A program made the position numbers and the translations under genes. Source: a virus. From it: 64,000 nucleotides of DNA. Below, in pieces: positions 2,993 to 19,442 of this stretch. The notes beneath the pieces were generated by a model. The model was not told the origin of the DNA, searched no databases, and was given only the letters and a program-made list of their open reading frames with translations. The stretch's first letter is position 1. Each line of letters opens with the position of its first letter. The stretch is taken from the IMG/VR virus record IMGVR_UViG_3300010430_000004, positions 32,001-96,000 of that record; one strand, given 5' to 3'.

Positions 2993-3003
2993 TGTTTTAT
3001 CTC

Positions 3004-3555
3004 CTACTGTTTTACTTCTTTAAATCTAGATGGACAGTTATCAGCGTGTAAAGCGTCTTTAATTGTTTTCTGTCCACAAGTACACTTTGGATGATGTTCT
3101 TTAAAAAAGAACTTTTTAAGTTTATCAGCCTCAGTTTCCTCTGTTTCTTCTTCTGCTTCTTTGATCATTTCCTTAATTTCTTGCTTCTTAACCTCATTTT
3201 CAAGATCTGTTAATGATGATCCTGTAGGCAATGTTACAGTGTTCCAACGATTGGTGTTTGTTTTACTTTCAAGGTGTTTGTCAAGATCTTTCACTTTGCT
3301 GGTCACTATACTGTTTAGGTCTTGACTAAACTCAATAACAACTTCTGGTATATTTATTTGTCCACCAACGTCTTTAAAGTCATCATGTTCAAGATAGAAA
3401 TAATAAGTCCCTATCCTAGTAGGGTCATGCTCAATCATTACCAATTTAATGTCCTTTGGTAATTGAGAGAGAATATTCCTATAGGCATAGTGATTTAAAG
3501 GCCATTTATTTGCGTTAAGCCCTACATTATTAATTGCTATCTTGATTTGCCTCAT
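3004..3555 (-). CDS. Hypothetical protein with a C-terminal CxC...H...C motif
   Basis: 183-aa ORF; KCTCG...HADNC. Confidence 0.6.
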   Translation of the reverse strand: MRQIKIAINNVGLNANKWPLNHYAYRNILSQLPKDIKLVMIEHDPTRIGTYYFYLEHDDFKDVGGQINIPEVVIEFSQDLNSIVTSKVKDLDKHLESKTNTNRWNTVTLPTGSSLTDLENEVKKQEIKEMIKEAEEETEETEADKLKKFFFKEHHPKCTCGQKTIKDALHADNCPSRFKEVKQ

Positions 3556-4091
3556 CCTACTTGCTCTTCTTTTTGAATAGTAGGGTTTGATGGATAAATT
3601 CTACCCATAGGGTTTAGCCTTGGCACTCTAAATTGTTTAGCTTCATTATTAAGCAAGAAACCAGTTTTAATTTTTTCAGTTACTGCTAATTCAGTGCCAT
3701 CTAAAAGATAAACTGTTCTGCCTATTTCAAAAGGCTCATTAATCCACTCTACATTATATGGAGCATAACTTCTAATGCTTGTCTTGTCCACTACAGAATC
3801 TTTAAGTTCAATATCCCAACCAATAATTTTGGCAGCGTCCATGAATAATTTAAGGTCTCCATCTTCTTCTAAGAAGACGCGAGTAGAGTTTATAAAGCTA
3901 AATGGGCTTATTAAATCTTTGATGCCAGTGGCTACGATGTCTTCGTGAGGCACACTCACCCAGCCATGTCCAGGGTCTTGAGTATAAGTATATTTCTTTT
4001 TAATTTTAGTTTTGATTTTTAATTCTGTGACATTTTGTCCGAATTCTTGTCCAGCTAATGGTTTATTTTGAGTTCCGATTGGTAAGTTCAT
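3552..4091 (-). CDS. Phage early protein with a DPGHGW...FLEED motif
   Basis: Start moved to MNLPIG (AAGGAG RBS, sigma70 promoter upstream). Confidence 0.6.
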   Translation of the reverse strand: MNLPIGTQNKPLAGQEFGQNVTELKIKTKIKKKYTYTQDPGHGWVSVPHEDIVATGIKDLISPFSFINSTRVFLEEDGDLKLFMDAAKIIGWDIELKDSVVDKTSIRSYAPYNVEWINEPFEIGRTVYLLDGTELAVTEKIKTGFLLNNEAKQFRVPRLNPMGRIYPSNPTIQKEEQVG

Positions 4092-4112
4092 CTTGGCTCC
4101 TTGGTTAATTTT

Positions 4113-4169
4113 AATATAACATAGATTGTTAAAAAATGCTAGTAAAATTTTAAAACGTCTCAAAATGAG
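4113..4169 (-). promoter_or_regulatory. sigma70-type promoter with palindromic operator
   Basis: TAGCAT-N17-TATATT with extended TG; CTCAAAATGAG at 4159-4169. Confidence 0.7.
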
Positions 4170-4170
4170 A

Positions 4171-4485
4171 TTAGGCAGCAATTTCAATTATTTGTGTGTC
4201 TTCTAGTTGTTCTTCTTTTTGTTTTAAATTGTTTTTGAATAATCTTAAAAGTATGTCTACATCCATGCCACAAGTTTCTAGTGTAATATCCCAAACGCAT
4301 TTATCTAAATGTATCATACACTTATTATTTCTAAAACCACGGTATTTAAAAGCAAAGGTCATTTTATCAAAGCCAATAATTTCCATCATTAGCTCTAAGG
4401 CCTTGCCTTCGTTGTGGTAAAACCTTTTTTCTCTTCCTTCAATTATTATTAAAACTTCTTTAGTATTTATCCACAAAACGTTCAT
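4171..4485 (-). CDS. Hypothetical protein
   Basis: GGAGG RBS before MNVLW. Confidence 0.6.
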   Translation of the reverse strand: MNVLWINTKEVLIIIEGREKRFYHNEGKALELMMEIIGFDKMTFAFKYRGFRNNKCMIHLDKCVWDITLETCGMDVDILLRLFKNNLKQKEEQLEDTQIIEIAA

Positions 4486-4527
4486 ATTGGCCTCCAAAAT
4501 AAAAGGGCACTATGTGCCCCATACTGT

Positions 4528-5145
4528 TTAGAAATTAAGTCCACCATTAAGGTAAGCAGATCCTTGCATATGAATTTGTCCACCAATGCTATAACGTTGT
4601 TTTTTACCAAAACGTCTTTGATACATAAGACCCATATCAAATTCTTCATCAGTTTCAGCACGATAACTGCCAGTAGCTTCTTTGACTTTTAATTTAGTAG
4701 GTGTAATGCCAACAACTAAACTAATAGTGTTTTTCTTAGAAATGTCACGGTCAACATATTCTGTACGAATGACTACAGGTTTAATTTTCTTTTTGCTCTT
4801 AACCACTTTAATTCTGTTTTGGTTTCTTGGTACAATTTTAAATTTGTCACCATCAAGCTCAACAGTTTTTCCATCCTTAGTAGTGCGAACAATTTTGGAG
4901 TCTTTAAACACTTCAGGTGTTTCTTCTTTTACATAATGCTTTTCTACATCACTTGTATCTACATTACATACTCCAGTTTTATCTAAAATACACTCAGTAA
5001 ACTCTCTGCTATCTTCATCCATGATCTGATCTAATTCAAAAAGAAGCTCAGTATCAGCCTTGGCATTGACAGCAAAGGCCATAGTTAGTAGAATAATAAC
5101 TGCTAGTGTGTTTAGTACTTTTAGTGTTTTGTTAAAGTTCATCAT
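4528..5145 (-). CDS. Secreted protein with outer-membrane beta-strand-like C-terminus
   Basis: Signal peptide (AFAVNAKA) and terminal YLNGGLNF. Confidence 0.5.
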   Translation of the reverse strand: MMNFNKTLKVLNTLAVIILLTMAFAVNAKADTELLFELDQIMDEDSREFTECILDKTGVCNVDTSDVEKHYVKEETPEVFKDSKIVRTTKDGKTVELDGDKFKIVPRNQNRIKVVKSKKKIKPVVIRTEYVDRDISKKNTISLVVGITPTKLKVKEATGSYRAETDEEFDMGLMYQRRFGKKQRYSIGGQIHMQGSAYLNGGLNF

Positions 5146-5171
5146 TTTATTTCTCCTATTTAAGTTCATTA

Positions 5172-6332
5172 TTAGTTAAAGTCCAAAACTTTTATAATCA
5201 TAGATGAGTATTCGCCTTCTATAGTAACTTGCAAGTCATCTACCCAACAAATCTCACCTTGCTCATCATTGCTGTTCTCACCAGAAGCAATGTTGTTACA
5301 ATAAGCAAATCGTCCACCACCACTATGATGACAGTCATCATTATTGTAAACATCTGCATGGTCACCTTCATTTTCAACATAAAGACCTGGAGCAATATTA
5401 TAGCATTGGCCAGTAACAGGGGTCAAAACAGTAGACAAGATAACAGCATCAGTACCGTTAGTACCATTAGTTCCATTAGTTCCATTAGTTCCATCAGTAC
5501 CGTTAGTTCCATTTGTTCCATCTTTGCCGTCTTTACCGTCTTTGCCGTTTTCAATAACAAGCTCAGATCCGTCATCACAAACAAGTTTATTGCCTTTTAA
5601 AGTACAGGATTTGCCATCAGTGCCGTTAGTTCCATTTGTACCGTTAGTGCCATCAGTGCCGTTAGTTCCATTTGTACCGTTAGTGCCATCCACACCGTCT
5701 TTACCATCTTTACCGTTAACACCGTTAGTACCGTTAGTGCCATCAGTACCATTTGTGCCGTTGTTTCCTGTATCACCTTTAATATTTGTTTGAAGAACCC
5801 AAACTCCAGCGATTCTTTTAAATACGTCATTGGTATTGGTATTGATAAAGGTATCTCCATCTTTGCCGTCAACACCGTCAACAGGATCTACTGGACCATA
5901 AAGAACTTCAGAACCATCAGCACCATTTAAACCATTAGTACCGTCAACACCATTAGTACCGTTAGTACCGTTTGTTCCAGCAATTCCTTGAATGCCCTGA
6001 GTACCTTGAATGCCCTGAACACCTTGCTTGCCTTGAGCACCAGTAGCGCCTTTAGGTCCGGTTGCTCCTGTAGCACCTGTTGCTCCTGTAGCTCCAGTGT
6101 TTCCTTTGTCGCCTTTTGCTCCATCCACACCGTTAGTACCATTTAAACCGTTAGCTCCATCAACACCATTGTTAATGTCGGCTGTTGTTCCATCTTGACA
6201 TTCAATAGTTCCACCATTAGCGGTGTCTACTACAGTACAAGAGTCTCCTTTAGCTGTTCTAAACTCAACTGATTCATTGGCTCCACAAGCAGTTAATGCC
6301 AGCATCCCCAAAACAATTAATAAATTTTTCAT
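5172..6332 (-). CDS. Collagen-like (Gly-X-Y) lipoprotein
   Basis: Lipobox LTAC; long GAT/GTN/GKD triplet repeats. Confidence 0.85.
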   Translation of the reverse strand: MKNLLIVLGMLALTACGANESVEFRTAKGDSCTVVDTANGGTIECQDGTTADINNGVDGANGLNGTNGVDGAKGDKGNTGATGATGATGATGPKGATGAQGKQGVQGIQGTQGIQGIAGTNGTNGTNGVDGTNGLNGADGSEVLYGPVDPVDGVDGKDGDTFINTNTNDVFKRIAGVWVLQTNIKGDTGNNGTNGTDGTNGTNGVNGKDGKDGVDGTNGTNGTNGTDGTNGTNGTNGTDGKSCTLKGNKLVCDDGSELVIENGKDGKDGKDGTNGTNGTDGTNGTNGTNGTNGTDAVILSTVLTPVTGQCYNIAPGLYVENEGDHADVYNNDDCHHSGGGRFAYCNNIASGENSNDEQGEICWVDDLQVTIEGEYSSMIIKVLDFN

Positions 6333-6354
6333 AATATTCTCCTTTGTTTATTTT

Positions 6355-6412
6355 AATATAACTTATTTTTTTAAAAAATGCAATTAAATTTTTACAAATG
6401 TATCAAAACGAG
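6355..6412 (-). promoter_or_regulatory. sigma70-type promoter with operator
   Basis: TTGCAT-N17-TATATT; ATCAAAACGAG at 6402-6412. Confidence 0.7.
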
Positions 6413-6416
6413 TCGA

Positions 6417-6632
6417 TTAATGATAACTTTCGAAATCGTCTTCAACATCGTCTTCAATTAAACTTTCTTCGAATCTATTATATATTTCCCTTTCTTGCAT
6501 AATACGAACAAGGTCTTCAACTGTACTTAGCCAAGTCTCATCGTATTCTAACATTGGATCGTCTATTAACATATCTTCATGCTTTTTTAAAGCATCTAGC
6601 AGTTCATTATTTGTTAGGGCTTCTAAGCGCAT
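6417..6632 (-). CDS. Small acidic hypothetical protein
   Basis: 71 aa, D/E-rich, GGAG RBS. Confidence 0.65.
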   Translation of the reverse strand: MRLEALTNNELLDALKKHEDMLIDDPMLEYDETWLSTVEDLVRIMQEREIYNRFEESLIEDDVEDDFESYH

Positions 6633-7084
6633 TGTGATTTCTCCTTTTTACGTTCATTATATTGTTTAAGTTCTTCAGCATTTGCTTCAATAAGCATAGC
6701 ACAATCTGCTTGGTCTTTGCCTATATAGTTGATTACCCTTGTTTGTGTATTTTTCCATTTTCCTTCTCCATTACACCAATCTCTCATTTGAAGAAAATAA
6801 AGCATAGAGTTGTAGTTCATGTTTAGTTCCACAGCCAAAGCAACATGATCAGGAGTGTTTCCTTTTTGACTAAGACCACTATCAAGAACAGCAAATACTT
6901 CTTGGTCTTCATACTTTCTCTTTTTATAGCTCTTAAGCTGCTCAATAAGACTCAATACATCTCCAAGGTCTTTGTTGGCTCTTTGTATTCTATCTTGCAT
7001 TGTTGGAATGTTAGCCAATGGCTTTAAACTGTCAACAAGGTCTTCAGCTTTCTCTAATTTCTTTTTCAAATAATTTGGTGTCAT
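6623..7084 (-). CDS. Hypothetical protein
   Basis: 153 aa, AAGGAG RBS. Confidence 0.65.
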   Translation of the reverse strand: MTPNYLKKKLEKAEDLVDSLKPLANIPTMQDRIQRANKDLGDVLSLIEQLKSYKKRKYEDQEVFAVLDSGLSQKGNTPDHVALAVELNMNYNSMLYFLQMRDWCNGEGKWKNTQTRVINYIGKDQADCAMLIEANAEELKQYNERKKEKSQCA

Positions 7085-7105
7085 CAGTGCTCCTTAGTTA
7101 ACTCC

Positions 7106-7163
7106 AATATACCACGTTTTTGTAAAAAAAGCTACTATTTTTTTACAAACGTTTCATTTTGAG
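7106..7163 (-). promoter_or_regulatory. sigma70-type promoter with operator
   Basis: TAGCTT-N17-TATATT with extended TG; TTCATTTTGAG at 7153-7163. Confidence 0.7.
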
Positions 7164-7455
7164 AATCTATAATTGTTTCAAGATCTTTACGATTAAGAGG
7201 GCCAATTCCAATTCTGTTTGGTCTACCAAGATCTACCCACAATTTAAAGTCTTCTATGCTTGGAGTGCTGTAAGGGCTCCAGTCCATTGACTCTTCTTTA
7301 AACACTGTACGCATATCAAGCCTATGACTAGTCTCAGTATCCCATTGAAGCATTTGCACCTTAACTATGTGAAATATTTTGATGTTATCGTCTTCATAGT
7401 CTTTTTCAGGCAAATACTGAACGCCTTTATAAGTAAATTGATCAAATAGTTTCAT
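7135..7455 (-). CDS. Hypothetical protein
   Basis: GGAG RBS before MKLFDQ. Confidence 0.6.
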   Translation of the reverse strand: MKLFDQFTYKGVQYLPEKDYEDDNIKIFHIVKVQMLQWDTETSHRLDMRTVFKEESMDWSPYSTPSIEDFKLWVDLGRPNRIGIGPLNRKDLETIIDSQNETFVKK

Positions 7456-7942
7456 GTTCAACTCCGCAACCAATTACTTGGTTTTCTTGGTTAAGATAAA
7501 CAGCTCTATTATCTATTAGACTATCCATATAATAATCAAGGTTTAATTCATAATAGGGATCGTAGCCAAAGGCATAACTATTCATTATACTAACTGGCTT
7601 TGTATTCTCTTTATTATTATTGTGTGCAAGGCCAAAGTGACAATGACCAAGCTCATGGAAAATTAATTGATGAATAGCATAATAGTTGTGTTTATTGTTT
7701 TCAAAAAATTCAATGTCTATTACCACTCTGTAGTCTTTGCCATAATAGCATCTGCCAATGACATTGCCATCGTTTATTTCTGCAAATTCAACGCTTACTC
7801 CTATAGAAGTGTTATAAACACTTTCAAATTCTTCAACATAGTCTTGAAGTTCATACTCAATGAACGGCTTTCCCATGGCTTTAAAAGATGCGTTGTCACA
7901 CCCCATGAAGCAAAAAGAAAGCAAGATAAGTAACAATTTCAT
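7442..7942 (-). CDS. Lipoprotein Zn-metallopeptidase (matrixin/metzincin-like)
   Basis: Lipobox FMGC; HELGHCHFGLAH and a SIM Met-turn. Confidence 0.75.
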   Translation of the reverse strand: MKLLLILLSFCFMGCDNASFKAMGKPFIEYELQDYVEEFESVYNTSIGVSVEFAEINDGNVIGRCYYGKDYRVVIDIEFFENNKHNYYAIHQLIFHELGHCHFGLAHNNNKENTKPVSIMNSYAFGYDPYYELNLDYYMDSLIDNRAVYLNQENQVIGCGVEHETI

Positions 7943-8295
7943 TAAACTGCCTTAAGAACGTTAAGGTGAGCTTCAGCAACAATAACACAATCTACTGGAC
8001 CAAGGCCAACTATAAACTTGATACCATTGTGCTCATAGCCATGCAAAGTGCCTTCACCATTATCATAGACAAGAGTCATTTCAGCTGTGTCAATATGGTC
8101 TCTAATAATCTCATATTCACTAAGGTCTTCACTAGTAACCATAGCTAACTTAGTTAGAGAGTCGCCTAAATAACCAATAGACTTGCTCCATTCCTGAAAT
8201 TGTTCATCTTCAAGTAAACAGCCATCTTCTTTTTCAAAAAGATAAGGTTCAACTTTTTCTGCTCTGATTCCCTCTAAAACTTTTTCGAAATTCAT
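7942..8295 (-). CDS. Acidic hypothetical protein
   Basis: 117 aa, AAGGAG RBS. Confidence 0.65.
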   Translation of the reverse strand: MNFEKVLEGIRAEKVEPYLFEKEDGCLLEDEQFQEWSKSIGYLGDSLTKLAMVTSEDLSEYEIIRDHIDTAEMTLVYDNGEGTLHGYEHNGIKFIVGLGPVDCVIVAEAHLNVLKAV

Positions 8296-8316
8296 ACAAT
8301 CTCCTTGGTTAATTTT

Positions 8317-8376
8317 AGTATAACACGTTTTTGTAAAAAAAGCAAACTTTTTTGTAAAACTGTCTCATTTCGAGAC
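8317..8376 (-). promoter_or_regulatory. sigma70-type promoter with operator
   Basis: TTGCTT-N17-TATACT; GTCTCATTTCGAGAC at 8362-8376. Confidence 0.75.
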
Positions 8377-8377
8377 G

Positions 8378-9412
8378 TTAGGCCGCATTTATCCAGCTTG
8401 GAGAGAAATCAATCAATTTATAAGTGCCATCAAGGTAAACAACATTTCTCTCGTGAACATCTTGATGATAAATACCTGTTGACTCTTCAAGTGTTTCTTT
8501 AAGCTCTTCCATTACGCTTTCTACTTCATATTCACATAAGTCAGCCTCTTCAACGGTAATGCCACAATGCTCCATAAAAATAACAGCCACCCAGCCATGT
8601 GAAGTTTTGATTGCATGAGCACCATAGCCATAAGGTGTAACACCGCTTGATTCAGCTTGTTTGATGATCTCAAACTCTCTCTTAGCGTCATTAAAAGCCT
8701 CAGTATCTCTAAGAGCTGTTGAGCTACTCTTGATGTTGGCTAGGTTGTGGTGACGAGTGCCATTGATAATTAACTTAGCTCCTACACCCATGTAATGGGT
8801 ATAAAGGCTATATGAACCAACACTGCAATCGTTGTCTTCATCAATACCATTTTCAATATAGTCGCCAAGCTTTTTGTCAAGAGCATCAATTAGTTGACGC
8901 TTTACGAAAGTTTTCAGTGCCTTTTTCTTTGGTGGAATTCCAGGCTTAGTAACTCCACTGCAATAAGAGATAGGTGCTCCATTGAACGGTACGTTTGGTA
9001 CATAGATAAAGTAAGAACCATCTTTGCTGACTACTTTATACATAGGTCTATAGTGTCCATAGTTTCCTGTATGATTGATGTCTTTGAGACCACACCAAAC
9101 AAAGTGGCTAAAGTTGGAGATAATAGCCCTGTGATCGTCAGTAAATGGGTTGTCTTTTTGTTTTCTAGGTTTACCGTTTAGTCTGAAAGCGTATTTGTTT
9201 AACCACTCAATGCCAAGCTTTGTTTGCTCAGGAGTGATGTCGATACCTTTCTTAAGCTGGTGCTTTATGAGCGTAATAAGTTCAAATCTATCAGAGTCGT
9301 GATTTCTCTCTTCTTCTCTTTTCATGCGACAAACCTGATCTATTTGAGTCTTTATGAAAAGGTTAGCTTTAAGGGCATCTCTGTATCTCTTGATAGTTTG
9401 CTTAGTCATCAT
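8378..9412 (-). CDS. Two-domain protein with a C-terminal Ser/Thr protein-kinase-like domain
   Basis: VGSYSLY (P-loop), GAK, REF, IFMEH, HQDVHERNV (catalytic loop), LIDFS. Confidence 0.75.
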   Translation of the reverse strand: MMTKQTIKRYRDALKANLFIKTQIDQVCRMKREEERNHDSDRFELITLIKHQLKKGIDITPEQTKLGIEWLNKYAFRLNGKPRKQKDNPFTDDHRAIISNFSHFVWCGLKDINHTGNYGHYRPMYKVVSKDGSYFIYVPNVPFNGAPISYCSGVTKPGIPPKKKALKTFVKRQLIDALDKKLGDYIENGIDEDNDCSVGSYSLYTHYMGVGAKLIINGTRHHNLANIKSSSTALRDTEAFNDAKREFEIIKQAESSGVTPYGYGAHAIKTSHGWVAVIFMEHCGITVEEADLCEYEVESVMEELKETLEESTGIYHQDVHERNVVYLDGTYKLIDFSPSWINAA

Positions 9413-9442
9413 TTCTCCTTGCTAGTTTAACTTACAAATTAC

Positions 9443-9521
9443 CTATCGGTGGCTTGTAAAAAAACTTATGCCTCAATTCGAGAAAAATGCAAATTTTTTG
9501 AAAAAACTTTCTCAAAATGAG
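9443..9521 (-). promoter_or_regulatory. sigma28(FliA)-type promoter with two operators
   Basis: ATAAGTTT-N11-ACCGATAG (9469-9443); palindromes at 9472 and 9511. Confidence 0.75.
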
Positions 9522-9530
9522 ACAGGCTAT

Positions 9531-9719
9531 TCAATTAATAAGCTTTTCAAGCAAATCCTTGTTTTTGGCTATAGCACTACACATTACAGTGTTGCAAATG
9601 TTTGTATTTTCTACATTTCTGTCTATACGCTTGTTGGTTCGGTAAAGCCATAACAGGCAACTGATTATAAGTATACCATGTACAGCAACAAAAGCTATAA
9701 ATAAGTCTGTATGGTTCAT
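9531..9719 (-). CDS. Small membrane protein
   Basis: N-terminal hydrophobic segment; AAGGAG RBS. Confidence 0.6.
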   Translation of the reverse strand: MNHTDLFIAFVAVHGILIISCLLWLYRTNKRIDRNVENTNICNTVMCSAIAKNKDLLEKLIN

Positions 9720-9922
9720 GTGTTCTCCTTTAGAAAATAAATCTCAATGTTACTTAAACAGTCTTGGTCTGCTAAATTCTTAACAGTTTCCAATACTTGC
9801 GTCTGTTCTTCAGTCAGTGTGTTGTTAACCCACAGTTTTCCAACAGCCTCAATAAAACCTTGGTTGCTAGAATTGTCTTCATAGATCTTCAATAAACGTT
9901 TGTTAAATATAGAGTTTTTCAT
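9716..9922 (-). CDS. Hypothetical protein
   Basis: 68 aa, translationally coupled. Confidence 0.6.
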   Translation of the reverse strand: MKNSIFNKRLLKIYEDNSSNQGFIEAVGKLWVNNTLTEEQTQVLETVKNLADQDCLSNIEIYFLKENT

Positions 9923-10098
9923 CAGTGAGCCTTTACTGGTTCATAAACTTCATAGCTATCATAGCCACTTAGCGCGTTAAAAAAGTCAATTAGATCATCA
10001 CACGTCTCGAAATGATACGTGTTAACTTTTCCATTAGTCACGGTTGCTAGTGTCCAATAGATTGACGCTTCTTTTTCCATCTCTAGTAAGCTCTTCAT
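9922..10098 (-). CDS. Hypothetical protein (58 aa)
   Basis: Manual ORF MKSLLEMEKE...VKAH, AGGAG RBS, TGATG overlap. Confidence 0.6.
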   Translation of the reverse strand: MKSLLEMEKEASIYWTLATVTNGKVNTYHFETCDDLIDFFNALSGYDSYEVYEPVKAH

Positions 10099-10106
10099 AT
10101 ACTCTC

Positions 10107-10334
10107 CTATGCTACTTTCTTGTTAGTGTTCAATTTCTCGACAAAAATGTCAGCAACTGCTTGTTCACCATAAGTTGCTATCATATTGCTTAATTGTAGT
10201 CTAATAGCCTCTTTTGGATGAGCCATGAAATACTCAATGTTCAGGGCATGAGGTCTGGTAACAGTGTCATCAAACAGTTCTGCTTCAGCTTTCTTATCTA
10301 ATGCTTTGGTTTTATTCATCTTAATCGGTTTCAT
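10107..10334 (-). CDS. Hypothetical protein
   Basis: 75 aa, AAGGAG RBS. Confidence 0.65.
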   Translation of the reverse strand: MKPIKMNKTKALDKKAEAELFDDTVTRPHALNIEYFMAHPKEAIRLQLSNMIATYGEQAVADIFVEKLNTNKKVA

Positions 10335-10343
10335 AAATTCTCC

Positions 10344-10661
10344 TTAGAAAATAAGCACATAGCCGTGCTGTGATAAGTTAGTGATATCTGTTAAGTTTTC
10401 CATGTGACTTTCAGCAATCGTTTTGAGTTCACATAAACCCAATCGTCCACAAGAAAGCTGATACTCGTTGTAATTGTCGTCTTCATCGTAAAAGCAGAAA
10501 GCGATAGTGCTCTCGTCTCCATTGTCTTTGTTATAAAGAGTGATACCTACCGAGAATTCTATACCACTCATGTCTGCTCCATCACAGGCCAAGTTGCAAT
10601 CAAGGGCATGGGTATTAAAAGGTTGGCTGCTCCATTCACTGTCCATTGTAGTTGCTGTCAT
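10344..10661 (-). CDS. Acidic early protein
   Basis: 105 aa, first gene after a sigma28-type promoter. Confidence 0.65.
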   Translation of the reverse strand: MTATTMDSEWSSQPFNTHALDCNLACDGADMSGIEFSVGITLYNKDNGDESTIAFCFYDEDDNYNEYQLSCGRLGLCELKTIAESHMENLTDITNLSQHGYVLIF

Positions 10662-10693
10662 TTTTCTCTCCTTTAGTTTTCCTTACAAATTAC

Positions 10694-10771
10694 TCATCGG
10701 TCAACTTTCAAAAAACTTATGCCTCAATTCGAGATTTTTCAAAAAAAGTTAAAAAACTTTCTCGTTTTGAT
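10694..10771 (-). promoter_or_regulatory. sigma28(FliA)-type promoter with two operators
   Basis: ATAAGTTT-N11-ACCGATGA (10720-10694); palindromes at 10723 and 10761. Confidence 0.75.
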
Positions 10772-10776
10772 ACGCT

Positions 10777-11304
10777 TTAGCTTGCTTCTTGCTCACTAGC
10801 TATCTGTTGGAGTTCGTCTAAGAGGCTATCCACGTCTAGGATGCTGACCCATCTGTCATAGCTCATGTTTAGGTAAAGCCAACCATCGTCACTGATATAG
10901 CCATCATCGACTTCTCGTTGTACCGTCTTCTTTTCGTCTTCAGTTAAGGCTTTAAAAGCGTCATGCAATTCGTCTTCTGGTTGGATTTCTACTTCACCCA
11001 AAGTCATGCCATAAACCTCATTGCTTTGATAGAAAACACCCTCACTAAAGCGCACAGTGCAATGCTTGTGAATGAGAGTAAGGGCTTCATCGTTTTCAAT
11101 ACCACACTTTTCTAAAAGCTTAGCGATATCATGGCTTTCCTCAGAATCAACGTTTTGTAGCGCCTCAATAACAGTGTCAATAGCCTCACCATAGCCATGG
11201 CTTTCTACAAAGTCAGCTGTACCGTTGTCTGGATTGTTTGTGTAGTACTCTGTACCCCATTCACACTCATTCATGTACTTTTCGATAATTTGCTTAACAG
11301 TCAT
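10777..11304 (-). CDS. Highly acidic early protein
   Basis: Start at MTVKQ with AAGGAG RBS; D/E-rich. Confidence 0.7.
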   Translation of the reverse strand: MTVKQIIEKYMNECEWGTEYYTNNPDNGTADFVESHGYGEAIDTVIEALQNVDSEESHDIAKLLEKCGIENDEALTLIHKHCTVRFSEGVFYQSNEVYGMTLGEVEIQPEDELHDAFKALTEDEKKTVQREVDDGYISDDGWLYLNMSYDRWVSILDVDSLLDELQQIASEQEAS

Positions 11305-11328
11305 ATACTCTCCTTTGGTCATATTTTC

Positions 11329-11405
11329 TTATCGGTGGGTCTACAAAAAACTTATGTCTCAATATGAGAATTTTGAAAAAAGTTAAAAAACTTTCTCAAA
11401 ATGAG
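11329..11405 (-). promoter_or_regulatory. sigma28(FliA)-type promoter with two operators
   Basis: ATAAGTTT-N11-ACCGATAA (11355-11329); palindromes at 11358 and 11395. Confidence 0.8.
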
Positions 11406-11693
11406 TCAGTCAATGTCAAGGTTGCGTTGTTCAATGTCATCATGGTAATCTCCAGCCATCAGCCACAACACCTTGATCTGTAAGTCAGCCTCATCCATGT
11501 CAGTTAGCTCATCCAGCGTCCACGCTCCAGTGTCTCTCAAATACTCTACCATCAACGGTCTCTCGGGAAAGTCCACCTTTTCAGAGTAGTCAACACAGTC
11601 TTGGTAACAATCACCTGCATGGTAACAAGCCTCTAATGCTTCAATGCTGATCTCCATTTCAAAGTAACTAGTCGTCATTATTATAGTTTCCAC
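11406..11693 (-). CDS. Highly acidic early protein
   Basis: 95 aa, GTG start with AGGAG RBS. Confidence 0.65.
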   Translation of the reverse strand: METIIMTTSYFEMEISIEALEACYHAGDCYQDCVDYSEKVDFPERPLMVEYLRDTGAWTLDELTDMDEADLQIKVLWLMAGDYHDDIEQRNLDID

Positions 11694-11745
11694 AAATCTC
11701 TCCTATCTATTTAGTATTGCTCAAGAATCGCACGTTCTCTTGGTC

Positions 11746-11934
11746 TCACAGATGATTCTCAAAATCGCTAGTCACTAGGTTCAACATTTCTATCAAGGTT
11801 TCTGTGTCATAGATCACTCCACGATCAATGGCACGAATAATAGCAGCATTATCAGCTACCACTTTTTCTTCAGTGCTATGGCACACAATCAAATTGGCTA
11901 GTTGTCTGATTGCTTTTCTTAAAACGTTGTTCAT
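11746..11934 (-). CDS. Hypothetical protein
   Basis: 62 aa, coupled to the upstream gene. Confidence 0.6.
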   Translation of the reverse strand: MNNVLRKAIRQLANLIVCHSTEEKVVADNAAIIRAIDRGVIYDTETLIEMLNLVTSDFENHL

Positions 11935-12215
11935 TATCCTTCTCCTAGCAGTTCAGCTACAGTGCTCATAAAGTCTACTGGAACTGTGATTTCGATACTG
12001 TCTATTTCACAAAAATCTAACTCAAGAAAGTCACCATTGTCACTCTCAACGTCACTAACCTCTACTACGTGTCCACCTATAGAGGTCATTGGGTATTTCA
12101 TGCCTTTAGACAAAGCAGTGGCATCTGGACAAAGATCTTCACTCCATAGATAGTCGATAACGTTTTCTATTCTATTCATTCCAATCTCTTCTAGTGTCAT
12201 TCTTAGTGTAATCAT
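11934..12215 (-). CDS. Acidic early protein
   Basis: 93 aa, AAGGAG RBS, first gene of the leftward module. Confidence 0.65.
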   Translation of the reverse strand: MITLRMTLEEIGMNRIENVIDYLWSEDLCPDATALSKGMKYPMTSIGGHVVEVSDVESDNGDFLELDFCEIDSIEITVPVDFMSTVAELLGEG

Positions 12216-12236
12216 CAGTGCTCCTTAGTTAATTTC

Positions 12237-12314
12237 TTATCGGTCAACTACTAAAAAACTTATGACTCATTTTGAGAAAGTTGCAAAAAATATAAAAAAC
12301 TTTCTCGAAATGAG
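12237..12314 (-). promoter_or_regulatory. sigma28(FliA)-type promoter with two operators
   Basis: ATAAGTTT-N11-ACCGATAA (12263-12237); palindromes at 12266 and 12304. Confidence 0.8.
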
Positions 12315-13175
12315 TCGTGACTGATCGGGACAAGAATAGCGTCCTGATACGTCCTGATTAGGTCTATAGGGTATTACATAGCCACCTATATGCCTCTTAG
12401 AGGCAGACCTACGTGGCTAGAATAGGGGCATGAAACTATATGATTTTGCAACAGATTCGGGTATATACGCGCAGTTGCTGAGAGCTGTTAAGAGTGTGCT
12501 ACTATGGGGTTTGGAGCGCCCCATTGCGAACAGCCCCAACTGCCCAGAAAAACTGACAGTGGCCCATACAGGCAGACAGACAGCCAATCAAACAATGACC
12601 CTATCATACAGCCACCTAACAGACAGCCACCCAGTTAGCTATGGCAAAATGCTAGAAATTTGTATAATTTCGCGTATTTATAAAAATTTTGTGTGTGTTT
12701 TTTCCAGAAAAAGTTGCAGAGCTTGAGAAGCGTGAAAAATGTCGCCTAACTTATCGAAATCATTACAGATCTATTTTGTTTTGCCTATTTACGCGTAGGT
12801 TTTGCCCTAGAGGGAGCATGAGTTTTGTACGTGGCTCTGATAAAGTGGCTGATTGGAGTCGGCTAGTTGTGTCGCCTTTGTTGCCTGTCTGTTGTGGTCG
12901 TCTCTTTGTTGTGGCCTATAAGAAAAGCCTAGAGTCAAAGGCCCCTTGCTAGCTGTGGTAAGGGTTCAACCTTCTTTTCCATGCAGAGAAAAGGCCCCTG
13001 GGGGGTTGTCTGAGCTTTCCACCACTGACGAGGGACCCGTTGGATCCTTCTGACACAGTGGTTCGCCTCATGCAGTGTAACCATGAAAGTCCAGAAAAAT
13101 AGGTACCCCCTTACCATAGAAAACGGAAAAGGGTACCTCAAGGAATCCTGCAAAAAAGGAATCCTATACTGGAGT
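12315..13175. other. Non-coding strand-switch region (candidate origin or genome end)
   Basis: No credible ORF; divergent transcription on both sides; A/C-rich and G/T-rich flanks around an AT-rich core. Confidence 0.45.
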
Positions 13176-13177
13176 CC

Positions 13178-13185
13178 CGATACTA
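13178..13185 (+). promoter_or_regulatory. Putative middle promoter box CGATACTA
   Basis: First rightward copy of YGATAYTA; further copies at 13587, 14909, 15091, 15600, 16121, 16746, 18695, 19426, 20526 and 29041. Confidence 0.6.
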
Positions 13186-13230
13186 AAGTAGTGGACCATG
13201 GAGTCCCCAACCCTCTTAAAAGGAGAACAC

Positions 13231-13581
13231 ATGAAAGCCAGTATCGAAGGTACTATCAGAAATAATGGTAAAACTACCAGCCTAATATTCAAACTCTTAT
13301 CAATGGCAATGGCCAACCCTGGAACCCCTCAAAACATATTTACTGAAAGTGACGTTTATGCGAGAAATAAGGGAATGTTGAATCATGCTAAAAGAATCAT
13401 AAATACCCTAAACCTAGACATAGAAGTAGATCTAGTCAAAACCAACGATCCTGACGGTCGCCTAGCACTAGTCATGACTTCACGGTACTATGGCAAGTTC
13501 CAAGCAGAAAGTGGAATGTTCGATATCAAAGGTTACATGGAAGATGGCAAGCCTATTCTTGGCAAGTTTACCAAGTTCTAA
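13231..13581 (+). CDS. Hypothetical protein with a degenerate P-loop (RNNGKTT)
   Basis: AGGAG RBS before MKASIEG. Confidence 0.6.
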   Translation: MKASIEGTIRNNGKTTSLIFKLLSMAMANPGTPQNIFTESDVYARNKGMLNHAKRIINTLNLDIEVDLVKTNDPDGRLALVMTSRYYGKFQAESGMFDIKGYMEDGKPILGKFTKF

Positions 13582-13600
13582 ATTCACGATACTAGTAAAC

Positions 13601-13767
13601 GCTGGGCAAACCATTTGTGCTCGACAGAGTATTGCTTTCGGCTAAATAGCGATAGATACGGAAAGCTCATAGAGGATAAGACCCTTGATTATTGAATAGT
13701 GTACTCTAATGGTCCCTTACGCATTATCTGTCTGTTCTGGATAGTGGTAATTACTGAGTAACCCAGC
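13601..13767 (+). ncRNA. Structured RNA element A
   Basis: Nested stems GCTGGG/CCCAGC, ACCATT/AGTGGT, GACAGA/TCTGTC, TATTGCT/AGCGATA, TAGAG/CTCTA; follows promoter box; ends in a T-run. Confidence 0.6.
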
Positions 13768-13785
13768 ACTTTTTTTGGAGAATAT

Positions 13786-13995
13786 ATGAGAACAAAAATA
13801 AAACATAAATTATTGTTAGAAGTTGAAATAGAGTGCCCTCTTGATAGTGATCACCCTGAACTTCATATAACAAAAGAAGAAGTTGCCGAATCATTGCTTG
13901 GTTCGGGTACTTATGCGGTTTGTGGAGACAATCCTAAAAAATATACAGCATTTATGTCTATCAAAAAAGTAACAGAAATAGATAAAGAATCATAA
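13786..13995 (+). CDS. Hypothetical protein
   Basis: 69 aa, GGAG RBS. Confidence 0.6.
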   Translation: MRTKIKHKLLLEVEIECPLDSDHPELHITKEEVAESLLGSGTYAVCGDNPKKYTAFMSIKKVTEIDKES

Positions 13996-14207
13996 TGGCT
14001 ATTAGAAAGCTGTTTAATTGGATGAATCAATACTACGTTCCAGGCTGTAGTGGAAAATGGAGCCATGATTGTCCTGTATGTAAAAAGCCAGATATGATGG
14101 GCACTGCTAGTTGGGACTATGATAAAAAGGATTATTACATAACTGAACATTGCAAATGTGGATATGTTTACCGAGGCATGAGAAAAGACAAGGATGATAA
14201 TGAGTAA
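13995..14207 (+). CDS. Small Cys-rich (Zn-ribbon-like) protein
   Basis: CPVC...HCKC. Confidence 0.6.
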   Translation: MAIRKLFNWMNQYYVPGCSGKWSHDCPVCKKPDMMGTASWDYDKKDYYITEHCKCGYVYRGMRKDKDDNE

Positions 14208-14433
14208 GCTTTCAGATATGATTAGAAAAGGTGAAAGATATGGCATTCAAGCCTGTAATCGTTGCGATTACCCTTCTCTGGTCAGAGCTAATACTTGTGC
14301 TGCTTGTGGATCATGGGATATTGAAGCCAACTTCTATGGAACTACTCAATACAAAAAGCATTTAGATGAAGATCCAATAGTGAGACAAAAAGCCAATGCC
14401 ATTAAATGGCTAAGAACTAGAACACTGAAATGA
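14194..14433 (+). CDS. Small Zn-ribbon protein
   Basis: CNRC...CAAC. Confidence 0.6.
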   Translation: MIMSKLSDMIRKGERYGIQACNRCDYPSLVRANTCAACGSWDIEANFYGTTQYKKHLDEDPIVRQKANAIKWLRTRTLK

Positions 14434-14485
14434 ATATTCATGGGCGTGGAGTCCATGAAACAATTAAACAACCGTGGAGGTTAAT

Positions 14486-14911
14486 ATGCAAGCAGATGAC
14501 GCTATCAAGTTATCAAACAAAGCCAAAGAATTATACGATAAAATACTAGATCTATCACTTGTAGATTTTTTGAAAAGAATAGATAAAGATGTTTCGTCCA
14601 ATGCAAATAGGGGTTTTACTAGTTGTATGGTTGATTTGTCTTTTTTGATAAATAATACTAGTATTCTTTTTGAAGCTCTCCAGCCGCTAAACAACCCTAG
14701 CGAGCGAGATGCTATTATGAATAAACTCAAAAAGAGAGTAAAAGACAAATTACCTGTAGGGTGGAGTAGCGATTTTCTAATGACTCCTGGATTTAGGAAA
14801 TTAAAGAAAAACCTGGAACAACACTACAAAGAGTCTGGATTTCAAGTATCTAATGATTATAACAATCCACATACCAAATTTTTAATTAAGTGGCAGAAAC
14901 AGGAACCTTGA
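14486..14911 (+). CDS. Hypothetical protein
   Basis: GGAGG RBS before MQADD. Confidence 0.6.
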   Translation: MQADDAIKLSNKAKELYDKILDLSLVDFLKRIDKDVSSNANRGFTSCMVDLSFLINNTSILFEALQPLNNPSERDAIMNKLKKRVKDKLPVGWSSDFLMTPGFRKLKKNLEQHYKESGFQVSNDYNNPHTKFLIKWQKQEP

Positions 14912-14920
14912 TATTTATCT

Positions 14921-15072
14921 TTGTAGTTGGGAGCTAAGTATCAACGCACTCCAAACCATACATTTTGAATATGTAGCTACTGTGTGTTGGTCGTTGAGAA
15001 GACCAGTGACCCATCTAAACAAAAGTCTCTCATGTACGGTTTGGTCCGTTTAATGATCCGTTTCAACGCACA
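14921..15072 (+). ncRNA. Structured RNA element B (rod-like with a central bubble)
   Basis: CCAAACCaTACAT (14951) pairs with ATGTAcGGTTTGG (15032); apical TGGTC/GACCA; terminal GTTG/CAAC; no ORF before the next promoter. Confidence 0.6.
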
Positions 15073-15101
15073 GGACGCATGGTTATTTTATGATATTAAA
15101 G

Positions 15102-15272
15102 AATTGAACATTGAAAGCGTGGGTCACTCAGGGTAGCTGACATAGTGACATCTGGCTGTCCACCTTTTTACGCCTGATGAGGATTACCGAAACATAGAAA
15201 TATGTCGCGTGGAGTCTCCCCAGGACAGGAATAACTGGAGACCTAGGCTACCCACTCTTTGAATGTTCAATT
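15102..15272 (+). ncRNA. Structured RNA element C carrying the hammerhead ribozyme
   Basis: 21/23-bp terminal inverted repeat (15102-15124 with 15250-15272). Confidence 0.75.
15166..15214 (+). ncRNA. Type I hammerhead ribozyme
   Basis: Stem I ACGC/GCGT; core CTGATGA (15174); stem II GG-atta-CC; GAAA; stem III CATA-gaaa-TATG; GTC cleavage triplet (cut after 15206). Confidence 0.85.
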
Positions 15273-15281
15273 AGAGGAATT

Positions 15282-15596
15282 ATGGATAAAGACTTTCTTG
15301 AACAGCTACAATTAATCATTTTTAATAAGGTTCGTCTAGAACCAGTAGGTTATACAGTCAAAATTTTGATGCCCTCTTCAATGTACGACCAGTGTATTGA
15401 CCATTTCACTGCACTGGGTATAAAACCGTATATAGGAAAATTGGAACTGTCTGGACAAAGCGGCCCCCATTATAGTTATGTAGTTTTGATAAATCCAGAC
15501 GCTGATGAAGTGGACCAACACGCAGTATCTGAAGCTGTAATGATTCCAGCTAAACTGGACGGTTTGGGTCCTATACTAGAATACGTCCATATCTAA
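15282..15596 (+). CDS. Hypothetical protein
   Basis: 104 aa, GAGGA RBS directly after element C. Confidence 0.65.
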   Translation: MDKDFLEQLQLIIFNKVRLEPVGYTVKILMPSSMYDQCIDHFTALGIKPYIGKLELSGQSGPHYSYVVLINPDADEVDQHAVSEAVMIPAKLDGLGPILEYVHI

Positions 15597-15613
15597 TTTC
15601 GATATTAATATTT

Positions 15614-15684
15614 ATTCAAGGCATCCTAGAGTCGCGATAGGATGGTGGGAGTAAACCGCACGAAAGGCCCACTTCACCTTGGAT
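15614..15684 (+). ncRNA. Structured RNA element D (three-way junction)
   Basis: ATTCAAGG/CCTTGGAT closing stem; CATCCTA/TAGGATG; GTGGG/CCCAC. Confidence 0.55.
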
Positions 15685-15697
15685 GTTTGGAGAATAT

Positions 15698-15901
15698 ATG
15701 ACAAAATATAAAAACATTTCTATTAGAATTCCAGCACATACAACCAACAATGGCAAAATCATAGGTTTATATTTTAATTTTCCTACCAAGTTTCATATAG
15801 AAAAAACAAAACTGCCATCTTCTACCAGATATATACTAGACCTAGCTATTCTTGGTTTTGGAATTTATATAAATATTGTCAGAGGTCTTGATGCCACATA
15901 A
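15698..15901 (+). CDS. Hypothetical protein
   Basis: GGAG RBS before MTKYK. Confidence 0.55.
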   Translation: MTKYKNISIRIPAHTTNNGKIIGLYFNFPTKFHIEKTKLPSSTRYILDLAILGFGIYINIVRGLDAT

Positions 15902-16136
15902 AAATTATACTTGTTGTGACAGGAATATTTGTGAATGTGGAGAAAAAGAACACCGTACTCATGGCAGTCAAAAAGTAAAAATTGACATTAGAGAAGCGAC
16001 TAAAAAAATTGAATTAGCTTTCCATATAGAACAAAAATACCCCCAATTATCTCTTATAGAAATTAACAGAATAGTGGCAGGAATCCTAAAAGGCAATGTT
16101 CAGCTTTTAGATAAAAAGTCTGATATTAAAAAATAA
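15891..16136 (+). CDS. Hypothetical Cys/His-rich protein
   Basis: MPHKNYTCCDRNICECG. Confidence 0.55.
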   Translation: MPHKNYTCCDRNICECGEKEHRTHGSQKVKIDIREATKKIELAFHIEQKYPQLSLIEINRIVAGILKGNVQLLDKKSDIKK

Positions 16137-16209
16137 GTAGTAACTCAAGAGTAGAGTGCCATACCGAAAGAAGTATGAGGTGTGTCAGGTGCGAGTCCGG
16201 CCTACTTAG
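16134..16209 (+). tRNA. tRNA-like element with an abnormal 8-nt anticodon loop (pseudo-tRNA or mimic)
   Basis: Acceptor TAAGTAG/CTACTTA; D-arm ACTC/GAGT; CATAC-cgaaagaa-GTATG; T-arm GTCaGG-TGCGAGT-CCGGC; no CCA. Confidence 0.65.
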
Positions 16210-16212
16210 ATG

Positions 16213-16354
16213 TTATCGTCGGGTGATTCAGAAATGAATCAAGGGAAGCAAGATAATCAGCTCAGTCTCTGTAGACACTAAACTCAGGGTTCTTGTAACA
16301 TCGTTTTAAATTTAACACCGAAACTAGTCCGGTGTAATTGACTAGCCCAGATAA
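16213..16354 (+). ncRNA. Structured RNA element F with an H-type pseudoknot
   Basis: TTATC/GATAA closing stem; GATTCA-gaaa-TGAATC; GCAAGA/TCTTGT; ACACCG/CGGTGT whose loop CTAGTC pairs with GACTAG. Confidence 0.6.
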
Positions 16355-16364
16355 GGAGAAAATT

Positions 16365-16745
16365 ATGGCAGCGCCATTTATAATCAAATATGGTATAGAT
16401 GATTCCAATGGAACTCTTGGAGTTATAGAAACTAAAAAATCCAGAAAAGGAAATTATTACGAAAGAATCAATATTGGTTCTGGATGGGAATATAATCACC
16501 ACTACGAAAAAGATAAGGTATTTATTAACGATGGTTATCAATATGCTTATGCTGCCATAGTTGATTGGCTTTTAGGCAGAGATGATGAAATAGTTTATGA
16601 TCTTGATCTTAACACTGCTCCACCATTTCTTAAGGTTGAAAAAAGTAGTTGTTTTGTATATATCTCAGTAATAGACTTTGATGGTTTTGATATTGATGAA
16701 TTTCACAAATGGACAGAAAACAAAGTAATGGTAAGAGTTTGGTAA
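16365..16745 (+). CDS. Hypothetical protein
   Basis: AAGGAG RBS before MAAPF. Confidence 0.65.
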   Translation: MAAPFIIKYGIDDSNGTLGVIETKKSRKGNYYERINIGSGWEYNHHYEKDKVFINDGYQYAYAAIVDWLLGRDDEIVYDLDLNTAPPFLKVEKSSCFVYISVIDFDGFDIDEFHKWTENKVMVRVW

Positions 16746-16759
16746 CGATATTAATAAAC

Positions 16760-16824
16760 GGATATGCAGTCCACCGCGTATGATGCGTAGCTGGTCTTCT
16801 TTAAAGAATCATACTCTTGCCAGC
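16760..16824 (+). ncRNA. Structured RNA element G (loop-loop pairing)
   Basis: Hairpin loop GTATGAT (16778) is complementary to ATCATAC (16808) inside the GCTGG/CCAGC stem. Confidence 0.5.
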
Positions 16825-16842
16825 GATTTTTTAGGAGAATTT

Positions 16843-17097
16843 ATGGAATTTTGGGTAACTCTTATTGGAGTACATAATTTACACGTAGATGGAGTAAAAG
16901 AAGCATTAGAAGCTAACTGTACTCATGTATTGAATGATTATTATATTTTTGAAGGTTCTCTTGAATATCTTGAAAATCATTACGGAGTAGAATTTTCTAG
17001 TCTTGGCGAAGGTGCGGTTCCATCTCTAGGAGATATGGATCAAGGTGCTCTTATTCATCTTTGCTTTGAAGTTTTTGGAATAGATGTGACTATATGA
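16843..17097 (+). CDS. Hypothetical protein
   Basis: AGGAG RBS before MEFWV. Confidence 0.6.
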   Translation: MEFWVTLIGVHNLHVDGVKEALEANCTHVLNDYYIFEGSLEYLENHYGVEFSSLGEGAVPSLGDMDQGALIHLCFEVFGIDVTI

Positions 17098-17209
17098 GTG
17101 CTTCCCTTTTTATTTTTATACTAGCAGTGATTGTACCACACGAAGCAGACACTATTGTTTGGTTTGCTTGGTTCATTTCACTTTTTATTGATTTTGAGTA
17201 GGAGAATTT

Positions 17210-17917
17210 ATGAACAGAAGAGATCTTTTAAAAACCGGAGCAGCACTTTCTGCCGTTGCATTTTTGCCTTTTTATAAAAGCAAAACAAAACCAAAGTGGG
17301 CAAAGGCTGATCATATTAAAACTTTAGATAGTTGTCTTTATCAGTATAATAAAAGAATAACCAAAGATCTTCCACCTGTTTATTACAAATGGGGAAAGAA
17401 ACTAAACGCATCAATAGATGCCAACACTACTACTTATATCAGGCAAATTTCTATAGAAATGGCAGCGCCCAATGTTACCAAACAAAATATCATAAATGAA
17501 ATTAAAGAAAAATGGAACGATGACTCTGCAATCTTAACTACTATTGGTGCAGAAGGGGCTTTTATCGATTTGGATACTGAAACCTTTAGAGCTCATAGAG
17601 ATATAGCTTCCCTTAAAAGATCCTTAAAACAAAACAGAGAATACGAAGATTCGAAAAGCATGACAGAATATAAGGAATGTATTATTGATAAAAATCCTCA
17701 GTATTCTAGAAAGTGGAGAGAATGGTACACTGAAAATAAAAGGCACATCCATGTATTGCCTGTGGGAGAAAAATCTATAATCAAAGAGTCTTATAAAACA
17801 AGCAATAGATTTTGTATAGACTCTTTTGCTAATCAAAACATTGCCGCCAGAGACAAGACTATTCAGGATATAAAAAATAAAGAAATTAACCCACTTTATT
17901 ATAGGTCCCTTATATGA
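17210..17917 (+). CDS. Hypothetical protein with a twin-arginine-like signal
   Basis: MNRRDLLK followed by a hydrophobic stretch. Confidence 0.6.
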   Translation: MNRRDLLKTGAALSAVAFLPFYKSKTKPKWAKADHIKTLDSCLYQYNKRITKDLPPVYYKWGKKLNASIDANTTTYIRQISIEMAAPNVTKQNIINEIKEKWNDDSAILTTIGAEGAFIDLDTETFRAHRDIASLKRSLKQNREYEDSKSMTEYKECIIDKNPQYSRKWREWYTENKRHIHVLPVGEKSIIKESYKTSNRFCIDSFANQNIAARDKTIQDIKNKEINPLYYRSLI

Positions 17918-18240
17918 AGAAAAGAAAAGCACCTAAAGTTATAGCTGGGGCTCGTGGGTTGTTTGTTAAAGACGGAGTGACTCATGGGTATGCTGTTGGT
18001 GTATCTGTGGTAGCTAACTATGCCAACATCTCTTTTGGTACCGTCAGGGTAGTAAAAGGTCTGGTAGAAAAGTTTACCGAACTCCAAGAATGCGAATTAC
18101 AAATCTTGGACCCTGCCACTAATGAAATAATACACAAATTAGACCTTAAAGATTATAAACCCTATATTACAGCTAATGATGGTTTATTTACTTGCCAAAT
18201 ACCGCTGAAGGTTGATAAGGAAAAAGATGAAGATAATTAA
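17914..18240 (+). CDS. Hypothetical protein
   Basis: 108 aa, ATGA overlap. Confidence 0.6.
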   Translation: MKKRKAPKVIAGARGLFVKDGVTHGYAVGVSVVANYANISFGTVRVVKGLVEKFTELQECELQILDPATNEIIHKLDLKDYKPYITANDGLFTCQIPLKVDKEKDEDN

Positions 18241-18703: not shown

Positions 18704-18712
18704 TATTTAATA

Positions 18713-18787: not shown

Positions 18788-18796
18788 GAGGTTGCC

Positions 18797-19438: not shown

Positions 19439-19442
19439 GTAC

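Follow-up and report, generated by a model that had tools for sequence, protein, structure and literature searches.

Putative sigma28-type promoters head the first leftward genes of an uncultured phage and resemble attack-phase promoters of Bdellovibrio

The window analysed here is a stretch of 64,000 nucleotides, bases 32001-96000 of the IMG/VR virus record IMGVR_UViG_3300010430_000004, a genome of 168,536 bp and 35.9% G+C that CheckV rates as complete. Negative positions are counted leftward from the window start. A leftward block of small open reading frames (ORFs), presumed to be early, starts at about 12.3 kb and is headed by four short sites that resemble promoters of the flagellar sigma factor, sigma28 (FliA). 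The phage is a myovirus, two giant ORFs of which resemble baseplate and tail proteins. Among deposited phages it is related only to Mx1 of Myxococcus (169.6 kb), sharing 31% identity in a baseplate protein and 32% in a sigma factor, and a megablast of the promoter region against the deposited phages gave no match.

Four minus-strand stretches match the pattern ATAAGTTT-N11-ACCGATRR exactly (9443-9469, 10694-10720, 11329-11355 and 12237-12263), and the 168,536-bp genome contains none besides these. With up to two mismatches there are still just four sites, where 0.18 are expected and none of 100 shuffles reaches four. The Bdellovibrio-style pattern AAG-N15/16-CCGAWRRG picks out precisely the same four against a shuffle mean of 0.7. 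All four are intergenic and lie 22-36 nt 5′ of AGGAG and ATG. Their -10 octamers are ACCGATAA (twice), ACCGATGA and ACCGATAG, and the G after CCGATRR is invariant.

Each site is embedded in a repeat unit of about 90 nt. Read 5′ to 3′ on the minus strand, the unit begins with a distal palindrome CTCA-N3-TGAG, followed by 18 A/T-rich nucleotides and a hexamer like TTGCAA. After a gap of 4 nt come a proximal palindrome CTCR-N3-YGAG, then nCATAAGTTTTTT, 8 free nucleotides and ACCGATRRG. It ends with a short unstructured leader, a Shine-Dalgarno (SD) sequence and ATG. The proximal palindrome always stops 2 nt 5′ of ATAAG. The folding scores of the leaders (z of -0.2 to +0.8) rule out an RNA structure there and hence a role of the CCGAT box as an RNA element. 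An earlier note had reported four intergenic copies with identical spacing ahead of a ribosome-binding site and ATG, and the exact scan and the SD and ATG distances bear this out. Its boxes and spacing stand, but its description was incomplete, omitting the 90-nt unit, the two palindromes, the TTGCAA-like hexamer and the invariant G.

Unit 1 has its sigma28-type core at 12237-12263, with ATAAGTTT at 12256-12263, N11 and ACCGATAA at 12237-12244. Its proximal palindrome CTCAAAATGAG is at 12266-12276, the TTGCAA hexamer at 12281-12286 and the distal palindrome at 12304-12314. The first gene (11934-12215, minus strand) encodes 93 aa without a family match and is followed by ORFs of 62 and 95 aa down to 11406. 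Unit 2 has the core ATAAGTTT-N11-ACCGATAA at 11329-11355, the proximal palindrome CTCATATTGAG at 11358-11368 and the distal one at 11395-11405. Its gene (10777-11304, minus strand) encodes 175 aa from the SD-linked ATG at 11304.

Unit 3 carries ATAAGTTT-N11-ACCGATGA at 10694-10720 and the proximal palindrome CTCGAATTGAG at 10723-10733, and its distal copy is degenerate. It precedes five minus-strand ORFs of 105, 75, 58, 68 and 62 aa (9531-10661). Unit 4 carries ATAAGTTT-N11-ACCGATAG at 9443-9469, CTCGAATTGAG again at 9472-9482, a distal palindrome at 9511-9521 and TTGCAT 18 nt 5′ of TAAGTT. Its gene (8378-9412, minus strand) encodes 344 aa with faint kinase-like matches only. None of the proteins encoded downstream of the four sites has an informative family match, and no relative of the 344-aa protein was found in IMG/VR.

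Every site has the orientation of the gene that follows it. The expected start of transcription is about 9 nt past CCGATA, an offset taken from the mapped promoters of Bdellovibrio bacteriovorus HD100 (Karunker et al. 2013, PMC3627812, Table S2). The predicted transcription start sites (TSSs) are near 12229, 11321, 10686 and 9435 for units 1 to 4, giving leaders of 14-25 nt that contain the SD.

The units are conserved beyond this genome. A metagenome scan found three contigs (L012-L014) with seven more copies, 11 in total. All follow CATA[A/G]G-N15-CCGA[T/A][A/G][A/G]G, in which the spacing and the final G are invariant and the spacer sequence varies. The -10 octamers of the relatives are ACCGATAAG, GCCGATAAG and ACCGAAAAG, and one relative copy is GCCGATAA exactly. 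L012 is syntenic with the early block, its proteins are merely 37-57% identical to those of the phage, and the promoter cores are nearly the sole stretches that align at the DNA level. Two boxes at a constant distance with free sequence between them, as in these alignments, are the mark of a DNA signal that is recognised as a pair of boxes in fixed geometry.

An exact motif scan across IMG/VR gave two matches only, both by chance inside coding sequence. The 81% relative fragment (L008/G001) does not include the early region. In L014, the homologue of the unit-2 gene is headed by a promoter of the sigma70 class described below (cassette on the L014 minus strand at 1737-1815, against window 11304-11405 in the phage). 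Hence the two kinds of predicted promoter behave as interchangeable cassettes. The L012 homologue of the 344-aa gene lacks the promoter cassette and has a terminator-like hairpin only.

In HD100, 140 attack-phase promoters were TSS-mapped, and 92 of them contain TTAAG-N16-CCGATA (Karunker et al. 2013, PMC3627812). Their commonest -10 box is CCGATAAG (about 26 by our own count), CCGAAAAG is next, and CCGATGAG (Bd0367) and CCGATAGG (Bd3754) also occur (PMC3627812, Table S2). AAG and CCGA are separated there by 15 or 16 nt, transcripts start 8-9 nt past CCGATA and leaders of 4-17 nt are common (PMC3627812, Table S2).

The extended -10 variants of the phage copies (CCGATAAG, CCGAAAAG, CCGATGAG, CCGATAGG) are identical to the mapped HD100 octamers, including the T-to-A variant in L012, and every octamer of the phage and its relatives occurs in a TSS-mapped HD100 FliA promoter. 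AAG and CCGA are 15 nt apart in all 11 copies, with 11 nt between the octamers. The predicted phage leaders are likewise short. The -35 box CATAAG(TTT) fits in its AAG core and T-run (cf. Bd0224 and Bd0500) but has A at a position where the hosts have T. Some HD100 promoters (Bd3268, Bd0161) also have CTCA-N3-TGAG just upstream. The phage sites differ in carrying CATAAG with a T-run, in overlapping a sigma70-like promoter, in having two palindromes per unit and in being predicted from sequence.

The class 3 flagellar promoters of E. coli and Salmonella have the consensus TAAAGTTT-N11-GCCGATAA. The phage sites share the two octamers and the 11-nt gap, matching 6/8 and 7/8 positions. Unlike that consensus, they have A in place of G ahead of CCGAT, and CCGATAA is always followed by G, as in Bdellovibrio; the genes behind them are ORFans and not flagellar genes.

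The resemblance extends across the order Bdellovibrionales. In 61 genomes of the order, AAG-N15/16-CCGATAAG has 452 matches versus 183 for the reversed-pattern control, and CTCA-N3-TGAG-N18-30-CCGATA has 86 versus 9. The latter include Bd3268 and Bd0161, both FliA-type promoters with mapped starts (PMC3627812, Table S2). With this geometry, which is common in the order, the putative phage promoters reproduce a host promoter class beyond a generic consensus. The order also includes HD100-like genomes, two of which (G060 and G050) contain the Bd0760, Bd3144 and Bd3268 promoters verbatim. The flagellin promoters of the order, taken from the best flagellin gene of each candidate-host metagenome-assembled genome (MAG) and of many genomes of the order, follow cCTAAAG-n-CTCAnnnTGArACA-CCGATrAG with a second palindrome upstream. 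They share with the phage sites the A before CCGAT, the ACCGATrAG -10 box, the AAG -35 box, the 15-nt spacing and the two CTCA-N3-TGAG palindromes, whereas their proximal palindrome fills the sigma28 spacer and that of the phage sits just 5′ of the -35 box.

CTCA-N3-TGAG(AC) is conserved in the flagellin and other FliA promoters across the order (host loci L117-L146 and L160-L169, and Bd3268, Bd0161, Bd2486 and Bd3143 of HD100), either between the two sigma28 boxes or immediately upstream of the -35. It is apparently an undescribed cis-element of the FliA promoters in Bdellovibrionales. The palindrome-bearing sequence CTCAAAATGAGAC is a candidate protein-binding site. The palindromes would let a DNA-binding protein, probably one of the host, modulate the units.

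A lead to the host comes from the M17 leucyl aminopeptidase of the phage (genome 145209-146693; L006:5209-6693), which is of Bdellovibrionota type. Its organism-named cellular homologues (43-44% identity) are all from MAGs of Bdellovibrionota, Bdellovibrionia or Bdellovibrionales with one exception, which is labelled only 'Pseudomonadota bacterium' and groups with the Bdellovibrionota MAGs. By maximum likelihood, the phage peptidases form the sister clade of those from Bdellovibrionota. The two clades lie within a branch of 100% support in the Shimodaira-Hasegawa-like approximate likelihood ratio test (SH-aLRT), and this branch is set off from other phyla by a long branch. In all five candidate-host MAGs (G002-G006), FliA scores above the TIGR02479 cut-off, and the flagellin genes number 4-7 per MAG. 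The homologues of the RNR R2 subunit are phage relatives only, the closer ones 78-91% identical, and give no host signal.

The host is most likely a Bdellovibrio-like predator of the order Bdellovibrionales, which we take as a lead and not as proof. A Bdellovibrionota host had been guessed in the earlier note, and the grouping of the peptidase supports it. The same peptidase is common to about ten other large contigs with 50-82% identity, probably related phages. A first contig scan with it had given no match.

Besides the sigma28-type boxes, each unit has a sigma70-like pair. In all 11 copies, a TTGCNN, TTTCAA or TTACAA hexamer lies exactly 18 nt 5′ of TAAGTT or TAGGTT. The phage also has a clear sigma70 class of promoters further down the same strand, with the layout palindrome, N18, TTGCWT or TAGCAT, N17 and TGTTATAYT. 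The next minus-strand promoter downstream of unit 4 is one of them (8317-8374), with palindrome CTCGAAATGAG, N18, TTGCTT, N17 and TGTTATACT on the same scaffold as units 1-4. Others on the leftward strand are at 7106, 4113 and -1261.

This class, acTAGCATttttt-N-caTGTTATAYT, is very uniform and has about 15 copies genome-wide. Besides those in and near the block, they include genome positions 100436, 110728, 130399, 134897, 136209, 146721 and 150532. The palindrome is confined to the members within the leftward early block and a single one elsewhere, at genome 143292, most of the class being without it.

We consider it likely that the host sigma28 holoenzyme recognises the four promoters, probably as dual promoters in which TAAGTT serves both as the sigma70 -10 and as the sigma28 -35. 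Each unit would copy the host architecture of CTCA-N3-TGAG, a (C)ATAAG -35, 15 free nucleotides and the -10 CCGATAAG. From the weak sigma70-like pair, a second transcript may begin some 21 nt 5′ of the sigma28 start, so that the first four leftward transcription units could fire via either holoenzyme. The sigma28 reading had been advanced in the earlier note, and it gains from the octamer identity with HD100, the conservation in relatives so diverged and the host-type palindrome; FliA dependence is what we infer from these.

Dual sigma70/sigma28 promoters are known at the enteric flagellar operons fliA, flgM and fliD. There too, the same genes are open to two holoenzymes from closely spaced starts. 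The phage would differ in sharing one hexamer between both, its sigma70 part being putative.

Several observations weigh against sigma28 recognition or against the proposed host. The phage -35 CATAAG has an A where the hosts carry a T in CT[A/C/T]AAG or TTAAG. In the five MAGs nearest by the peptidase, the sigma28 pattern is just modestly enriched, 22 versus 8; a looser one, TAAG-N14-17-CCGATA, is not enriched in them, being too unspecific. With a weight matrix from 19 flagellin promoters only, the four sites rank 5th-12th in the genome, and their scores are no better than those of shuffled DNA. The units still contain a sigma70-like -35/-10 pair, arranged as in the sigma70 class of this phage, and the phage encodes a sigma-family protein of its own just past the window end (genome 96788-97840; L003:1788-2840). 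As to the host, its assignment draws on one gene tree and the shared cis-elements. When window 1-20000 was compared by BLAST with 384 genomes of the order, no spacer-like match of the CRISPR type came up, the matches being collagen-repeat and AT-rich sequence.

The sites might instead be sigma70 early promoters of the usual kind (TTGCAA-N18-TAAGTT) whose spacer holds the operator of a repressor, ACCGATAAG being a separate protein site or start-region element and the sigma28 likeness a coincidence. The TSSs would then be about 7 nt past TAAGTT, near 12250, 11342, 10707 and 9456. The -35-like hexamer at an unvarying 18 nt fits this, as do the palindrome-N18-TTGCAT-N17/18-(-10) layout shared with the clear sigma70 class, the T-12, A-11 and T-7 retained in TAAGTT and the sigma70-class promoter of the L014 homologue. 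However, the pair scores just 7/12 against the consensus TTGACA-N17±1-TATAAT, lacks the TGn that every good sigma70 promoter of the phage has and is not called by a consensus scan. Moreover, an invariant octamer at a fixed distance across a free spacer is left without a reason, its identity and that of its variants with the Bdellovibrio FliA -10 boxes are unexplained, and the leader has no RNA fold. We regard this reading as unlikely.

The phage sigma-family protein, a divergent member of the sigma70 family, has 350 aa with an N-terminal extension of about 135 aa, and its family has about 390 metagenomic cluster representatives. It matches PHROG 351 'RNA polymerase sigma factor' (2.4e-6), a sigma-28 model ranks first in NCBIfam through region 2 only (6.7e-6), and SigK and WhiG are weak matches in the PDB. 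With the family profile, regions 2-4 of RpoD are best (1e-9) and FliA and WhiG are weaker (about 2e-5), the members matching many sigma groups. A FliA hidden Markov model built from MAGs gives E = 0.04 only. Six-frame genome searches with Pfam Sigma70_r2, r4, T7 RNA polymerase and FlgM gave no match, although these are weak negatives as r2 and r4 missed the phage sigma itself. The gene adjoins those of a helicase and the terminase, an arrangement kept in Mx1.

A third, promoter-like class in the genome is YGATAYTA, mostly CGATATTA, with 46 copies oriented with the downstream genes, 18 of them in the roughly 8% of DNA that is intergenic. They are at window 13178-20533 and genome 27884, 33429, 61041, 92861/92867 and 137166 among others. 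No -35 partner was found for them, and they are not enriched in Mx1.

The four sites could be middle or late promoters read by this phage sigma, in favour of which are its PHROG, NCBIfam and PDB matches and the CGATA core that YGATAYTA has in common with the -10 box. We hold this to be quite improbable. A sigma28-specific affinity is not seen in the family profile, and Mx1, whose host is non-flagellated, has the sigma gene but no enrichment of sigma28-like sites (1 versus 2 in the control). The motif is at four units of small ORFs only and before no structural gene, and a sigma for these alone is unlikely. YGATAYTA has no -35 counterpart, and the palindromes that the units share with the sigma70-class promoters are located at a YGATAYTA site in 0 of 13 cases. 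The phage sigma more likely serves the late genes or the YGATAYTA class, as far as its sequence tells. A phage-encoded sigma had been named beforehand as a possible objection to host FliA; it is present, but it does not look sigma28-specific and is common to Mx1.

The phages SPO1 (gp28, gp33/34) and T4 (gp55) run programmes with alternative sigmas after beginning on the host sigmaA or sigma70. The present phage resembles them in having several promoter classes and encoding a sigma-family protein. It differs in that they start on the main host sigma and then use their own, whereas the first units of this phage appear to rely on an alternative sigma of the host.

Promoters of the N4 type are hairpins with a 5-7-bp stem and a 3-nt loop at -11, and go with a gene for a virion RNA polymerase. 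That the units are such promoters for a virion-packaged polymerase, or a repeat without promoter function, is highly improbable: CTCA-N3-TGAG can form a stem with a 3-nt loop just 5′ of the boxes, but it has 4-5 bp only, no T7-like polymerase domain was found in a search of limited sensitivity that was positive in no control genome, the two giant ORFs are accounted for as baseplate- and tail-like, the same palindromes in host flagellin and FliA promoters across the order make them host-type DNA sites, and all units are directly 5′ of SD and ATG.

If the host sigma28 holoenzyme does read the units, a link to the predator's life cycle suggests itself. In Bdellovibrionales, FliA drives most attack-phase genes, and the free-swimming predator stage is non-replicating and FliA-dominated. 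We propose tentatively, and with more doubt than confidence, that the phage copied the full cis-logic of the predator's attack-phase promoters, FliA boxes and the palindrome site of a host regulator, and joined it to sigma70 promoters. The first phage genes would then come on in the attack-phase cell, which swims without growing and is the only stage that the phage can reach, and sigma70 would take over once the infected predator grows in its prey. The phage would thus read the life stage of the predator.

To our knowledge, phages start on the host sigma70 or bring their own polymerase or sigma, and no report of phage early promoters of the sigma28 type was found in the literature searched. 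If true, beginning on an alternative sigma of the host would be an entry strategy new to phages, one that fits the biology of Bdellovibrio-like predators. We know of very few phages of predatory bacteria, and for a large uncultured lineage related to Mx1 the finding offers a lead to the host and promoters open to testing. It also points to a regulatory palindrome at the flagellin and other FliA promoters of Bdellovibrionales, and compact attack-phase-specific promoter cassettes could serve Bdellovibrio engineering.

There are a few minor observations. Outside the window, at genome 17432 on the minus strand, TAAGTTT-N11-TCCGATAT is a weak sigma28-like site with a spacing 1 nt short; it is intergenic with no minus-strand gene 3′ of it and probably occurs by chance. 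Within the presumed early block, a protein of 386 aa with collagen-triple-helix repeats is encoded at window 5172-6332 on the minus strand, and its repeat DNA has many weak matches to collagen-like genes of Bdellovibrionales genomes. ARAGORN calls a tRNA-like gene at window 19530-19600, with a two-base anticodon (gt) undetermined. The other phage genes include those of a DnaE-type polymerase, RNR, RecA, ligase, ClpP, NAMPT and a PRPP-synthetase-like protein. NAMPT, the PRPP-synthetase-like protein and the DnaE-type polymerase are encoded near the M17 peptidase, and this set could sustain replication in a non-growing cell.

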